A DNA stretch of 64,000 nt from the NCBI GenBank assembly GCA_963770895.1, contig CAVYRF010000002.1, positions 224,001 to 288,000 on the forward strand. The letters are read 5' to 3'. The translations under genes and the position numbers were made by a program. Each line of letters opens with the position of its first letter. Position 1 is the first letter of the stretch. Of the stretch, positions 16,201-22,200 are shown piece by piece. Source of the DNA: an uncultured Acidobacteriota bacterium. Its GTDB lineage: Bacteria; Acidobacteriota; Thermoanaerobaculia; Multivoradales; UBA5704. The notes below the pieces were generated by a model. It was not told the origin of the DNA. It did not search any database and saw nothing but the letters and a program-made list of their open reading frames with translations.

Positions 16201-19200
16201 GGCGAAAGCTCCTCGACCAGCTTTTCGAACGGCACGTCCTGGTGGCGGGAGGCCGCCAGCGCCGTCTTCCGCACCCGCCGCAGCAGCTCACGGAACGACG
16301 GACCGCCCGGCCTATCTCCCGATAGGTCGGCGCGCAGCACGAGCGTATTGACGAAGAACCCGATGAGGTCCTCGACCTCCACCCGGTTGCGTCCGGCGGT
16401 GGGCGAGCCCACGGCCAGGTCGTCCTGTCCGCTGGTGCGCGCCAGCAGGGTCTGGAAGCCGGCCAGGAGCACCATGAACAGGGTCGCGCCCTCGCTCCGG
16501 GCCAAAGCTTCCAGCTGCCGGGTGAGCCCGGCCGGCAGCCGCACCGGCCTGGCACCGCCACGGAAGCTCTGCCGCGCCGGCCGCGGCCGGTCGGTCGGCA
16601 GGTTGAGCAGCGTCGGCAACCCTGCAAGCTCGTGGCGCCAGAAGGCGACCTCCCGCTCCAGGGTCTCGCCGTGTAGCCAGGAGCGCTGCCAGAGCGCGAA
16701 ATCCGAATATTGCACCGGCAGCTCGGGCAGGGGGGACGGCTCGCCCGCGGCAAACGCCGCATACAGGGCGGTGACCTCGCGCACCAGGATTCCCAGCGAC
16801 CAGCCGTCGCTCGCGATGTGGTGCAAGGTCAGCGCGACGGCGTGGTCGCCGGCGGCAAGCCGCAGCAGCGAGCCGCGCAGTAACGGGCCGCGCGCCAGGT
16901 CGAACGGCCGGCCGGCCTCCTGCCGGGCCAGGGTGAGAGCCAATGCCTCGCGCTCCCGCCGCGGCAGGGCGGACAGGTCCACGACCGGCAGCAGGAAGGG
17001 CTGCGCCGGATGCACCACCTGCACGGGCGATTCGTCCGGCGCGGCGAACACCGTGCGCAGTGCCTCGTGGCGGCGCACGATCTCGCCGAGAGTCGCCGCC
17101 AGCACCCGCGGGTCGAGCGGCCCGGCGATCCGCAGGGCCACCGGCAGGTTGTAGAGCGCGCTCCCCGGTTCGAGCTGATCGAGGAACCAGAGGCGCTGCT
17201 GGGCGAACGACAGCGGCCGCGGCTCGCCGCTGCGCCCGCCCCGCGCGATGGCCGCCGGCGGCGCCGGTGGCGGCAGTGCCGGCCGGTCGTAGCCGAGACG
17301 TACGGCCATCTCCCAGGTCGCCACGCCGAGCGAGCCTTCCCGCGCCTCCTCCCGGAAGCGCTCGGCGACTCCCGCCTCGACGCCCTTGTACTGGAGGAAC
17401 TTGACGTCGCCGAGCATTTTTCCCTCAGCATGGATGCCGTCGGTCATCCGCGCCCGTCCCTCCCGGTAGGGATCGATCATGGCGGGATGCAGCTCCACCC
17501 CCAGGGCGGCGCAAAATCGCCGCAGCTCGGCTTCGGGGTGGCGCACCAGGTCTTCGAAACCGACCCGCAGCTGGCGCTCCGCCGGCACGCCGGCCAGGTG
17601 CTCCAGGATGTTTTCGTGGCTCGCCAGCCAGATCAGCTCGGCCAGCTCCGCCCGCTCGAACTGGTGCGGATGGCGGAAGAAAAGCTCGTCCAACTTGACC
17701 TCCTCGAACGAGCGGATCGAGGCGTAGGGGTGGCGGAGCAGGTGGATATAGAAAGGTTTCTCAAACGCCTCCTCGGCCCGCCGCAGCACGGCCAGGTCCA
17801 AAGCGTAGGTGGTCGTCTTGTCGACCAGGGTGCGGCCGCCCAGCCACGCCTGCAGCTGGCGGTAGAACTGCTGCGTCGTCCAGCCCGCGGCGACGGTGGC
17901 GCCGATCGTCTGCCGAGCCTCCTCGACGCTGCATTGGCGCGCCTCCATGACGGCGCGAATCGCCCCTTCCAGCCAGAAGCTGTCGCGGCCGGGGAACGCG
18001 GCTTGGCGTTCGGCCATGGTGTTGAACGACAGCAGCTCGAGCTCCGGCGGCGCGAACAGCCGCGGATGGCCGCCCAACATGACGCGCAGCAGCGTCGAGC
18101 CGGCGCGCGGCGGCGACAGGATGAAGATCGCCGGCGGGTTCTTCGCCGCCGCCAGGTGCGGCCAGGGCGGCAGGGGTGCTATCACCGAGCGGAAGGCGGC
18201 CGACCGCTCCCGGTCGACGCGGCCGGCCGCGCGGCCGCGCGATGGCGGCTCCTGGGCCGCCTCGGCGCCGAGCGAAGCGGCGCCCCACAGGCGGACGACG
18301 GCCTCCCGCTGCTCGCACGCCAGATAGGCCGCCATCTTCGCCACCGTGGGAGCGTCGAACAGGACGACGACGTGGACGACCCCGCCGATCTCCCGTTGCA
18401 GCCGGTTCATCAGGATCGCCCCGGTGATCGAGTTGCCGCCCAGGTCGAAGAAGGAGTCGTGGATGCCGACGCTCGGGACCGCCAGCGCCTGGCGCCAGAG
18501 GCCGGCCAGGTACTCTTCGAGCGGCGTCCGCGGCGCGGCAGGCTCCGTGCCGGCGGCGAGCGCCAGCTCGGGATCGGGCAGCGCCCGGCGATCGACCTTG
18601 CCGTTCGCCGTCCGCGGGAAGGCCGCGATGGGCGCCAGGACCGCCGGGATCATGTAGCTCGGCAGGCGGTCCTGGAGGTGGCGCCGCAGGCTGGCGACCA
18701 GGTCCGGGTCCGGCGCGCCGGGCGCGGTCACCCAGGCGACCATGCGTAGTGCGGTCCCCGTGCCGCGCAGGTCCACCACGGCCTCCTGCACCGCCGGGTG
18801 CGCGGCCAGGGCCACCTCGATCTCCCCCAGCTCGATGCGGAAGCCCCGCACCTTGACCTGGTGATCGATGCGGCCCAGGAACTCGAGCGCGCCCTCCGCC
18901 CGCCAGCGCCCCAGGTCGCCGGTCCGGTAGAGCCGCGCGCCCGCGGCGGCGCCCGCGAACGCAGCAGGCACGAACGCCAGGGCGGTGCGCGCCGGGTCGG
19001 CGAGGTAGCCGCGCCCCACCCCTGCGCCCCCGACGCACAGCTCGCCCGGCACGCCGATCGGCTGCGGCTGGAGGTCCCGGTCGACGACGTAAAGCTGCAT
19101 GTTGGCCACCGCCCGGCCGATCGCCGGGCGCCAGGCCGCCGCGGCCGGCGCCTCCCGCACCAGGCCGATGCTGACGTCGTCGGAGCACTCCGTGGGACCG

Positions 19201-22200
19201 TAGGCGTTGAGCAGCGGGATGCCGGGATGGCGGCCGAACCAGCGCCGGCAGAGCTCCGGCGGTAGCGCCTCGCCGGTGGGGATCAGCCAGCGCAGGTGCG
19301 ACAGGTCGGGGTCGCTCTCGGCTCCCCCGTCGATCATCTCCAGCATCGCCGTGAGCAGCGAGGGGACCAGCTCCAGGACCGTCACCCGGTCGCGCGCCAC
19401 CGCGGCGACGAGCGCCGCCGGGTCGTGGGCGATGGCGTCGGGATAGATGGCGACGCGCCCTCCCGACGCCAGGGCCGACAGCATCTGCCAGACGGAGATG
19501 TCGGAGCTCTGGGAAGAGTTCTGCGCCACCGTGTCGGCGCTGGTGAGGCCCAGCACCGCAATGGTGATGAGGGTGTGGTTGGCCAGACCCCGGTGAGGCA
19601 CCATCGCGCCCTTGGGCAGCCCGGTCGAACCGGAGGTGTAGATGACGTAGGCCAGGTGGTCGAGCCCGGCGCGCACCGGCTGCGGCGCCGCCTCCCCCTC
19701 CAACCGCTCCAGGTCCTCCAGCGCCAGGATCTCCGGCAGCGGCGACGCGGGCGCCGCCGCGAGCAGCGCCGGGCCCAGCCCGGCGCCGGACAGGAGCAGG
19801 CGGGCGCCGCTCTGGCGCAGCACCCCCAGGGCGCGTGCGGCTGGCTGTTGAGGGTCCAGGGGGAGATAGGCGGCGCCGGCCTCCAGCACCGCCAGCACCG
19901 CGGTCAGGAACGGCAGGCCGCGCGGGGCCAGGATCGGCACCACCGATTCGGGGCCCACGCCGCGGCCGACCAGCGCCGCCGCCCAGCGGCGCGAGCGGCT
20001 CAGCAGCTCGCCGTAGGTCAGGCGCTCGTCGCCGCAGACGGCAGCCACCGCCGTAGGCGTCCTCGCCGCCTGCGCCGCGAACAGGTCCTGCAGGCAGAGG
20101 GCCGCCGCGGCATCGCCGGTTTGCGAGTCGTTCCACTCGCAGAGGGTCTGGTGCCTCTCGGCCGCGCCGAGCAGCGGCAGCTCGGAAAGCCGCCTCCCCG
20201 GGTCGGCCAGCGCCGCCGCCAGCAGCGTCGCGAAGCCGCCGCGCAGACGGGCGATGCGCGTGTCGTCGTAGAGATCGCTGTTGTAGCGGAACCGGCAGGA
20301 CAGTTGGCCCGCGACCTCGGTGGCGTTGAGCACCAGGTCGAACTTGGCGGTGGCGGCGCCGGACTCGATCGGCCGGAAGCGCAGGCCGGGCAGCTCCAGC
20401 GGCTCCATGGGGGCGTTCTGCAGCACGAAAAGGACCTGGAAGATCGGCGAATGGCTGAGGTCGCGCTCCGGTGACAGCTCCTCCACCAGCTTCTCGAACG
20501 GCACCTCCTGGTGGGCGTAGGCGCCCAGGGTGACCTCCCGGATCCGCCCCACCAGCTCGCCGAAGGTGGGGTCGCCCGACAGGTCGGCGCGCAGCGCCAG
20601 GGTGTTGAGGAACAGGCCGATCAGCGGCTCGGTCTCGGCGCGGGTGCGGCCGGCGATGGGCGAGCCGACGACGACGTCGTTCTGGCCGCTCAAGCGGGCG
20701 AGCAGGGCGGCGAAGGCGCCGAGCAGGATCATGAACGGCGTCGCGCCGCTCTCCCCCGCCAGGGCCGCGGCACCGCCCAGCGGCAGCTGCTGGAGCTGCG
20801 ACCGGCCGCGAAAGCGCTGCACGGCCGGGCGCGGCCGGTCGGCAGGCAGCGCCAGGAACGGCGGCGCTCCCGCGAGCCTCGCGCGCCACCAGCCGAGCTG
20901 CTCCGTCAGCGTTTGGCCCTGGAGCCGTTGCCGTTGCCAGACGGCGAAATCCGCATACTGCACCGCCAGCTCCGGCAGGGGGGAGGGCCGGCCGGCGGCA
21001 AACGCGGCATAGAGCGCCGCGACCTCGCGCGCCAGAATGCCCATCGACCAGCCGTCGCTGGCGATGTGGTGCACGGCGAGCGCCACGACGTGCTCGCGCT
21101 CCGCCAGGCGCAGCAGGACGCCGCGCAGCAGGCCGGCCGACCGCGATGGCCGGCCGGCACTCGCCGTAGCTCGCGGGCCTGCGGCCAGGTCGAACGGGCG
21201 GCCGGCCTCCTGCGCCGCGAGCGCGGCGGCCAGCGGCTCGCGCTGCGTCGCCGGCAGTCCCGCCAGGTCCACCACCGGCAGCGCAAACGGCGCCGCCGGC
21301 TGGATCACCTGCACCGGCGCGCTCTCCCGCACGGCGAAGACCGTCCGCAACGCCTCGTGGCGGCGCACGATCTCGCCCAGGCAGCGAGCCATCACCGCCG
21401 CCGCCAGCGGCCCCTCGATGCGCAGCAGGATCGGAATGTTGTAGAGCGCGCTGCCCGGTTCCATCTGGTCCAGGAACCACAACCGCTGCTGCGAAAACGA
21501 CAACGGCAGGGGCTGCTCCCGCGGCACCGGCAGGACCGGCGGCGCGGGCGCCGTCGCGCCGGTCCGCTGCGCCGCTTCGACGCGCGCCGCAAGATCCGCC
21601 AACCGCGGCGCCTCGAACAGCGCGCGCACCGGCAGCTCGACACCCAGGACGCTGCGCAGGCGGGACATCACCTGGGTCGCCAGCAGCGAGTGGCCCCCCA
21701 GCTCGAAGAAGTTGTCGGCGGCGGAGGCCCCCCGTTCCAGGCCAAGCAGGTCGCCCCAGATGGCGGCCAGAATCTCTTCGACCGCCGTGCCCGGAGCCAC
21801 CGCAGCGCCCACCGGCTCGGCACGCAGCGCCTCCGGAGCGGGGAGCGCGGCACGGTCCACCTTGCCGTGCACGGTCAGCGGCAGGCGGTCCAGCAGCACC
21901 ACCGCCGAGGGGACCATGTACTCCGGCAGCTCGCCCTGCAGAAAGCGGCGCAGCTCGGGCACCAGGCGCCGCGCCACCTTGTGGCGCAGCGGATCGTTGG
22001 CGTAGACGTGCGCCGGCAGGCCCGTGCGCTGCCCCGGCGGCGCGGGAACGGGTGCCGGCATCGGGACGCCACCAGCGCCGTCGCCGGCGCCGCGCCGGCG
22101 CAGCACCGTGGCAAAACGATGCGGGTTCTGGGGATCCCAGGTCAGGCCGACCGCATAGCCCAACCGCTCGCCGAGCTGCGCCAGCTCCTCGGGGTCGATC

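Follow-up and report, generated by a model that had tools for sequence, protein, structure and literature searches.

A sulfotransferase domain embedded behind a putative diaminopropionate module of an acidobacterial nonribosomal peptide synthetase, a candidate for in-line N-sulfonation

The DNA analysed here (the window, 64,000 nucleotides of contig CAVYRF010000002.1 from an uncultured soil Acidobacteriota bacterium, with a GC content of 0.62-0.77) encodes a nine-module nonribosomal peptide synthetase (NRPS) in which a sulfotransferase (ST) domain stands between the carrier (T) domain of module 8 and the condensation (C) domain of module 9. The order of the domains, the homology of the ST, the conservation of its residues, the purifying selection acting on it and its statistical ties to the adenylation (A) and T domains upstream are directly established by our analysis. 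We propose, at a probability of roughly one half, that the ST uses 3'-phosphoadenosine-5'-phosphosulfate (PAPS) to N-sulfonate, in cis, an L-2,3-diaminopropionate (Dap) residue bound to T8, and that the resulting sulfamate is kept in the product. Sulfonation in cis during elongation, on nitrogen or on oxygen, had already been raised by an initial annotation of the window, and it stands as the best-supported reading of the region, the evidence being comparative throughout.

Organisation of the module 8 to module 9 region

A Pfam scan of 54 overlapping 400-residue tiles, combined with hidden Markov models (HMMs) built from the window's own domains, gave the domain order of the synthetase as (C-A-T) x6, C-A-MT-T, C8-A8-T8, ST, C9-A9-T9-TE, where MT is a methyltransferase and TE a thioesterase domain. 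The length of 10,999 residues assigned to its open reading frame (ORF) is counted from the first TTG, and an ATG at 46146-46148 is the likelier start. The features of the region are listed below, the gene first and then its domains and motifs.

13254..46253, minus strand: NRPS gene, 10,999 aa, nine modules, stop-free ORF (ORF list, translation, Pfam tiles, own domain HMMs)
20172..21515, minus strand: C8 condensation domain (Pfam tiles, own HMMs)
18597..20081, minus strand: A8 adenylation domain, pocket code DIWEITADD (code by alignment)
19173-19208, minus strand: A5 motif of A8, NAYGPTECSDDV (sequence)
18318..18512, minus strand: T8 carrier domain with GGNSI core (Pfam)
18420-18452, minus strand: T8 motif FFDLGGNSITG (sequence)
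18429-18431, minus strand: phosphopantetheine Ser of T8, aa 9275 (sequence)
18177..18317, minus strand: T8-ST linker, about 47 aa, partly conserved among relatives (alignment)
17274..18176, minus strand: ST, Sulfotransfer_3, CurM/OLS-like, ORF aa 9360-9660 (Pfam, solved-chain alignment, own HMMs)
18084-18113, minus strand: ST motif PPRAGSTLLR (sequence)
18030-18050, minus strand: ST motif PPELELL (sequence)
17805-17828, minus strand: ST motif LVDKTTTY (sequence)
17706-17741, minus strand: ST motif LLRHPYASIRSF (sequence)
15900..17222, minus strand: C9, ordinary condensation domain (Pfam tiles, own HMMs)
16797-16823, minus strand: C9 motif HHIASDGWS (sequence)
14364..15815, minus strand: A9 adenylation domain, Ser-like code DVWHVSLVD (code by alignment)
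14088..14282, minus strand: T9 carrier domain, GGHSL (Pfam)
13257..14030, minus strand: TE thioesterase (Pfam)
13812-13826, minus strand: TE Ser-nucleophile motif GWSAG (sequence)

All the domains named by the initial annotation, A8-T8-ST followed by C9-A9(Ser)-T9-TE, are present in that order on the minus strand, and the span of 17290..20130 that it had given covers A8-T8-ST. Within the T8-ST-C9 stretch no further domain was found, the gap between ST and C9 amounting to 17 residues. The Dap-like module 8 is the penultimate one and is followed by the Ser module 9 and a TE with Ser, not Cys, as its nucleophile. This placement sets the ST apart from a CurM-type chain-release unit, in that it lies between T8 and C9 of an NRPS with a full C-A-T module before the TE. 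A specialised C domain was looked for downstream of the ST, and the C-domain tree placed C9 as an ordinary one; it shares 73% identity with C5 and groups with C3, C4, C5 and C7 at support 99. In the same tree C1 clusters with N-terminal starter-type C domains, and the A domain of module 1 is Thr-like.

Conservation of the sulfotransferase domain

The likeness to the CurM and OLS sulfotransferases that had first been remarked for the N-terminus of the ST extends over the whole domain. The ST matched PF13469 with 99.5 bits (E 4.1e-28, cut-off 27), and its best solved relatives were the OLS ST (4gox_A; E 5.7e-58, query 60-354 on residues 21-310 of a chain of 313) and the CurM ST (4gbm_A; E 2e-54, full-length over about 290 residues), the next solved chain being a tyrosylprotein sulfotransferase at 2e-4. 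NCBIfam gave nothing for the ST beyond a far sub-threshold NoeE match, and a protein-atlas search with the ST returned generic Sulfotransfer_3 clusters only. Alignment of the window's ST to the CurM and OLS domains keeps the PRxGSTLLR loop, the Glu of PPE, the Lys of DK, RHPY and the GD..F region. We take the 5'-phosphosulfate loop PRSGST and the RHPY region to be the loops that bind PAPS, and the Glu of the PPE motif (Glu60 of CurM) to be the catalytic base, with His62 beside it.

Residue conservation was read from 164 NRPS-type STs, namely 157 from the 150 best representatives of the database scan described below, the window's own, those of two paralogues and those of four related loci. The window's ST keeps the Glu that aligns with CurM Glu60, as do 162 of the 164, and it matches 53 of the 55 columns conserved at at least 95% in the family. 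At the position of CurM His62 the 164 domains hold Glu in 138 cases, Asp in 12 and His in 3, and the acidic residue there is a trait of NRPS-type STs rather than a defect of the window's copy.

Comparison with the orthologous locus L001, from a Holophagales metagenome-assembled genome (MAG), gave 85% identity for the ST and a ratio of nonsynonymous to synonymous change (dN/dS) of 0.17, against 0.27 for A8, 0.25 for C8 and 0.32 for C9. Among the 15 segments compared, only the carrier domains T7 and T8 have a lower dN/dS, and the linker between T8 and the ST stands at 70% identity and 0.79. An adenylylsulfate (APS) kinase gene is found elsewhere in the window's own genome (G000, 8.16 Mb; G000:C2:3031755-3032213), which suggests that PAPS can be made by the host. 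Because its residues are conserved, its dN/dS is low and an APS kinase is encoded in the genome, we conclude that selection preserves the ST, which is probably active. The idea that it is a catalytically dead spacer kept for structure could draw on two changes shared with L001, a Ser-to-Ala replacement in the phosphosulfate loop and the loss of an invariant Trp, but the constraint on the ST, tighter than that on A8, C8 and C9, its 53 kept columns with the presumed catalytic Glu among them, and a T8 motif typical of carriers that feed an ST make this highly improbable.

Coupling of the sulfotransferase to the module upstream

A HMMER scan of 1.84 billion representative proteins with the ST gave 3697 matches at E<=1e-3 and 1143 at E<=1e-30, and architectures, A-domain codes and carriers were counted in the 150 best of these 1143 representatives. 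All 150 are NRPS-type proteins, and their 158 ST matches fall into T-ST-C (71, the layout for which the initial annotation had proposed an architecture search), T-ST-TE (40), T-ST at the protein end (34), ST at the protein start (11) and T-ST-T (2). Two STs occur in each of 8 of the 150 proteins (P0002-P0008 and P0040), which suggests peptides sulfonated twice. The A-T-ST-C order is also found in four related loci, all of them in Acidobacteriota MAGs. When ten proteins were looked up, eight were named, six of the names pointing to Thermoanaerobaculia MAGs, and all eight are annotated just as "amino acid adenylation domain-containing protein". The T-ST-C layout is abundant in metagenomes.

The window's genome itself holds two further embedded STs, both behind Ser-like modules. 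One belongs to a 7603-aa NRPS (G000:C1:1807556-1830364, plus strand) that ends in A(Ser-like)-T-ST and an alpha/beta-hydrolase tail with GSSMGG, an end that resembles the terminal ST-TE of CurM and would here act on peptidyl-Ser. The other (G000:C2:5430463-5442699, plus strand) lies in the order A(Ser-like)-T-ST-C-A(Thr-like)-T-C-A-T. A Sulfotransfer_3 match of 97.5 bits was also seen in a 672-aa frame about 3.7 kb past an 11,247-aa NRPS ORF (G000:C2:2213201-2213821, plus strand), and this ST may be a trans-acting candidate. In all, dozens of NRPS ORFs account for about 269 A domains, and the part of this genome that is devoted to peptide synthetases is unusually large.

Pocket codes of nine positions per A domain were read by alignment to A8 with anchors on the core motifs; the positions were placed from the GrsA numbering, and the names Ser-, Thr-, Tyr- and Gly-like given from canonical codes. 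Of 116 A domains directly before T-ST, 109 were readable, and these were compared with 96 readable A domains from other modules of the same proteins. The codes before T-ST (n = 109) were distributed as follows.

Thr-like: 28
Ser-like: 21
Tyr-like: 11
DIWExTADD: 7
DVENxGxIL: 5
DALVSGxIF: 5
Lys/Orn-like: 4
Gly-like: 3
Other: 25

Thr-, Ser- and Tyr-like codes make up 60 of the 109 before T-ST against 8 of the 96 in other modules (Fisher p = 2e-13), and DIWExTADD 7 of the 109 against none of the 96 (Fisher p = 0.015), p values that are inflated by kinship among the representatives. The same bias was looked for in the A domains downstream of ST-C, and none was seen. On the ST tree the upstream code clusters: it takes 82 changes, the mean over shuffles is 108, and none of 200 shuffles came out as low. 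The window's ST sits there in a weakly supported group of STs preceded by Ser-like and DIWE modules, its nearest relatives beyond its orthologue (P0010 and both STs of P0002) following Ser-like modules.

The carriers show a corresponding pattern. A GGHSL core was found in 3 of 147 carriers before an ST, as against 66 of 91 other carriers of the same proteins, and GGNSI (43) and GGDSI (41) dominate among the 147. In the window's synthetase T8 alone has GGNSI, T1 has GGDSI and the remaining seven have GGHSL. The GGNSI core of T8, which had been noticed as atypical, is indeed present, and its oddness is explained by this signature, since carriers that feed an ST are rarely GGHSL; it is the mark of an ST-serving carrier. 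Taken together, the enrichment of A-domain codes, the clustering on the ST tree and the carrier motif argue that the ST is coupled to the residue held by the preceding T domain, which in most cases bears a hydroxyl.

This rule is not absolute, because 49 of the 109 A domains before an ST are not Ser-, Thr- or Tyr-like, three of them being Gly-like and offering no side chain. These exceptions leave room for an ST that acts elsewhere on the T8-bound chain, for instance on Thr1 or on a hydroxyl of an N-terminal acyl group, instead of on the residue loaded by A8, and the Thr-like module 1 with its starter-type C1 would provide such targets. That nucleophilic side chains are enriched exactly at the upstream position and not downstream, and that the ST tree clusters by the upstream code, speak against action at a distance, which we consider unlikely.

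Diaminopropionate as the predicted substrate of A8

The code DIWEITADD of A8 resembles a Ser-like pocket at positions 235, 239 and 331 but carries a Glu at 278 and two Asp, at 330 and 331, and such an acidic pocket would fit a short cationic side chain. To this extent the Dab/Dap-like call of the initial annotation held (Dab, 2,4-diaminobutyrate), and the genes that accompany the code now narrow it towards Dap. The two sets of genes concerned are the following.

11888..13243, plus strand: EctB-type diaminobutyrate--2-oxoglutarate transaminase, which makes Dab (TIGR02407, 620.4 bits, cut-off 552.2)
G000:C2:5595871-5598027: SbnB/SbnA pair, which makes Dap (both over cut-off)

Within the sets examined, every A domain with the DIWExTADD code has the A5 stretch NAYGPTECSDDV unchanged, and no other code has it. 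Of 401 genomes of the phylum, 3 (G000, G254 and G137) show the pattern of this motif, which is also present in G001, and SbnA is over cut-off in all four genomes with the DIWE-type motif as against 2 of 80 others of the phylum, neither of which has the A8-type A5 pattern. In G000, G001 and G137 SbnA/SbnB lie about 9-11 kb from NRPS clusters with DIWExTADD modules, which are the sole acidic-pocket modules of that kind in each of these clusters. The 20-kb neighbourhoods of SbnB in G001 and G004 showed no DIWE module, and in G001 one came to light farther out, within the same series of NRPS genes. Only G000 and G001 have EctB over cut-off, and it is these two that hold the A2-type motif (A2 code DVGEVSSID); EctB was looked for in G254 and G137, both 100% complete, and none was over cut-off. 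Because SbnA/SbnB accompany the code of A8 while EctB accompanies the A2-type motif, A8 most likely loads Dap rather than Dab. We read SbnA/SbnB as the supply of Dap for A8 in trans, and EctB most likely provides Dab for module 2.

Should the Dap reading be wrong, or A8 load a hydroxy amino acid, the ST would make a sulfate ester. The family as a whole probably does so after Ser, Thr and Tyr modules, and the 60 of 109 codes of these types, the Ser-like modules before P0010, both STs of P0002 and the two other embedded STs of G000, and the three positions that the DIWE pocket shares with a Ser-like one would all accord with O-sulfonation in the window. Its three acidic pocket residues (E278, D330 and D331) argue for a cationic side chain, and the DIWE code keeps company with genes for Dap synthesis; with these in view we regard O-sulfonation by this particular ST as rather unlikely.

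Other features of the synthetase and its neighbourhood

Several other features of the synthetase and the genes around it deserve record. A7 (code DIFHFGLIL) has an MT domain inserted in its C-terminal part (ORF aa 7650-8100, about 21.9-23.3 kb, minus strand), an insert also present in the Holophagales orthologue. The A3 domain (about 36.7-37.9 kb, minus strand) has the unusual pocket code DVYIITHVE, and A5 (about 30.0-31.2 kb, minus strand) the unusual code DAHITTHV-, found five times in the genome; in both, the A5 motif is a YGPSE variant. A 764-aa gene (46138-48432, minus strand) immediately upstream of the NRPS encodes a full C domain and an A domain with an internal gap (Pfam matches model positions 1-140 only, to which NCBIfam adds 303-373) and no carrier domain. 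Its stop and the likely ATG of the NRPS overlap by about 11 nt, and the gene may represent either the remnant of a module or a C protein that lacks a carrier. Adjoining the NRPS cluster is a gene for a LanM-type class II lanthipeptide synthetase (48814-51909, minus strand; DUF4135 E 3.8e-119, LANC_like E 8.8e-58). On the other side, beside EctB and the 3' end of the NRPS gene, lie two MacB/FtsX-type ABC permease genes (7129-9276, plus strand, and 9260-11827, minus strand), whose products may export the NRPS product.

Discussion

In the sequence of events that we favour, PAPS made elsewhere in the cell would be used by the embedded ST. A8 would load Dap on T8, the ST would sulfonate the side-chain nucleophile of this A8-loaded residue with either the chain or the newly loaded residue attached to T8, and the product of this step would be an N-beta-sulfo-Dap residue, that is a sulfamate with the sulfo group on the beta-amine. 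The ordinary C9 would then hand the sulfonated chain to Ser on T9, and the Ser-type TE would free a sulfamate-bearing nonapeptide, probably N-acylated. Catalysis itself, Dap as the substrate, sulfonation on N and not O, the persistence of the sulfo group in the product and the point at which it is added with respect to C8 are all steps that we infer from the comparisons above.

The sulfo group is probably retained in the product. Retention is favoured because C9 is an ordinary C domain, and because Tyr-like modules, for which elimination of a sulfate is impossible, precede both ST-C (4) and ST-TE (6). The known loading modules with a peptidyl carrier protein (PCP), an ST and a C domain in this order likewise favour it, as the published descriptions propose that they give retained sulfate esters. 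The two-ST proteins (8 of 150) also count among the points for retention. Transient activation would predict instead that the sulfo group is lost, having prepared a cyclisation through the acidified sulfamate nitrogen, of the kind seen in monobactams, or an elimination in the relatives with Ser or Thr. The CurM-type STs, which according to a review passage install a leaving group, give this some footing, as do the sulfamate formed by SulN, which according to PMC11298585 closes the beta-lactam as nucleophile on the SulM TE, and the 40 of 158 STs that stand directly before a TE, two of them after DIWE modules. In the window's synthetase, however, beta-lactam closure at the level of the TE is impossible because the Dap carbonyl is consumed by C9 and is out of reach for attack on the TE, which moreover has a Ser nucleophile in place of the Cys of the SulM TE. 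With a sulfamate being a poor leaving group, C9 ordinary and Tyr-like modules also found before STs, transient activation is in our view improbable here.

Several observations weigh against N-sulfonation of Dap and account for the caution with which we propose it. Members of the ST family follow hydroxy amino acids in most cases, so that O-sulfonation is their usual chemistry and N-sulfonation by this clade an extrapolation. STs preceded by DIWE modules form no clade of their own on the ST tree (8 changes for 9 rows), and no alignment column was found that cleanly splits them from the Ser/Thr type, the best being a weak one, an Ala after RHPY in 7 of 9 DIWE-preceded STs against 11 of 54. The 49 of 109 modules outside the Ser/Thr/Tyr rule, three of them Gly-like, and the kinship that inflates the Fisher p values belong here as well. 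Within the domain, the position of CurM His62 reads PPELHLL in CurM and OLS as opposed to PPELELL in the window; the window's ST and L001 both depart from the family in having Ala for the Ser of PRSGST, which 159 of 164 members keep; and the invariant Trp at aa 9633 is Phe in the window and Ser in L001. The Dap call for A8 derives from gene co-occurrence in four genomes, of which G000 and G001 have orthologous clusters and are not independent, and in G004 SbnA/SbnB stand beside an NRPS without the DIWE code, which is found nowhere in that genome. A near-identical code may have been listed for Dab; a text search for this code and its variants found no paper.

A broader view also suggests itself, which we put forward tentatively and regard as more doubtful than the reading for the window. 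T-ST units could form a large class of on-line NRPS tailoring domains with a dedicated carrier type that sulfonate nitrogen as well as oxygen, here building a side-chain sulfamate into a growing peptide. Relatives of the A(Dap-like)-T-ST-TE layout could then represent a fused, Ser-TE form of monobactam-type logic or other ring closures via the acidified sulfamate nitrogen, and uncultured Acidobacteriota a hidden reservoir of sulfated and sulfamated peptides. To our knowledge, few characterised nonribosomal peptides are sulfated, and sulfamates occur in peptides almost solely among the monobactams. Were the proposal true, sulfation sites would become predictable from sequence, wherever an A domain of the Ser/Thr/Tyr/Dap type is followed by a carrier whose core motif lacks His and then by an ST; the T-ST pair would be a portable unit with which to engineer sulfation into peptides; and soil Acidobacteriota would offer anionic lipopeptides left unannotated by the genome-mining tools now in use. 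The Dap and Dab assignments would in addition yield two usable A-domain codes for the phylum.

Comparison with known systems

The closest solved relatives of the window's ST are those of CurM (curacin A, 4GBM) and of the Synechococcus olefin synthase (OLS, 4GOX), which belong to the same PF13469 family and align over the full domain. Like the window's ST they are embedded in a megasynthase directly behind a carrier domain, and the phosphosulfate loop, the PPE Glu, the DK Lys and the RHPY motif are shared by alignment. They differ in that they act within an ACP-ST-TE order (ACP, acyl carrier protein) of a polyketide synthase on a beta-hydroxyacyl substrate whose sulfate leaves in decarboxylative release, a role that the review passage describes as the initial annotation had put it, whereas the window's ST lies mid-line in T-ST-C and has Glu where they have His62.

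In domain order the window comes nearest to the FkbH-glycerate loading modules of OciA (cyanopeptolin), DysB (dysinosin) and BslA (suomilide), which published descriptions give as PCP-ST-C inside an NRPS and whose ST is proposed there to sulfonate the PCP-bound unit with the sulfate kept. Those are, in the same descriptions, starter modules in which an FkbH-like loader provides glycerate; the window's ST follows a C-A-T elongation module with, most likely, an amine side chain, and the Pfam tiles of its NRPS contain no FkbH match. Given these loading modules and the abundance of the layout in metagenomes, the earlier view that the architecture is uncharacterised was too strong as worded. Our literature search found no characterised ST after an amino-acid elongation module (A-T-ST-C).

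In chemistry the nearest parallel is sulfazecin. The sulfazecin account in PMC11298585 describes PAPS-dependent N-sulfonation of PCP-bound Dap by SulN, in trans and reconstituted in vitro, as the initial annotation had stated, with Dap provided by an SbnA/SbnB-type pair, SulG/SulH; the chemistry proposed for the window would be an in-cis version of this step on module 3 of SulM. SulN is in that account a separate trans-acting protein and the window's ST is fused; the Dap module of SulM is terminal and its Cys-TE closes the beta-lactam, whereas in the window Dap is penultimate, a Ser module follows and the TE carries GWSAG. A figure legend in the same paper gives "S: sulfotransferase domain" for clusters found by genome mining in which Dap is the predicted substrate of the last module. 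Against this background the PCP-ST-C order was already known from glycerate loading modules, and what the present analysis adds is the A-domain code rule, the carrier-motif rule and the reading of A8 as a probable Dap domain.

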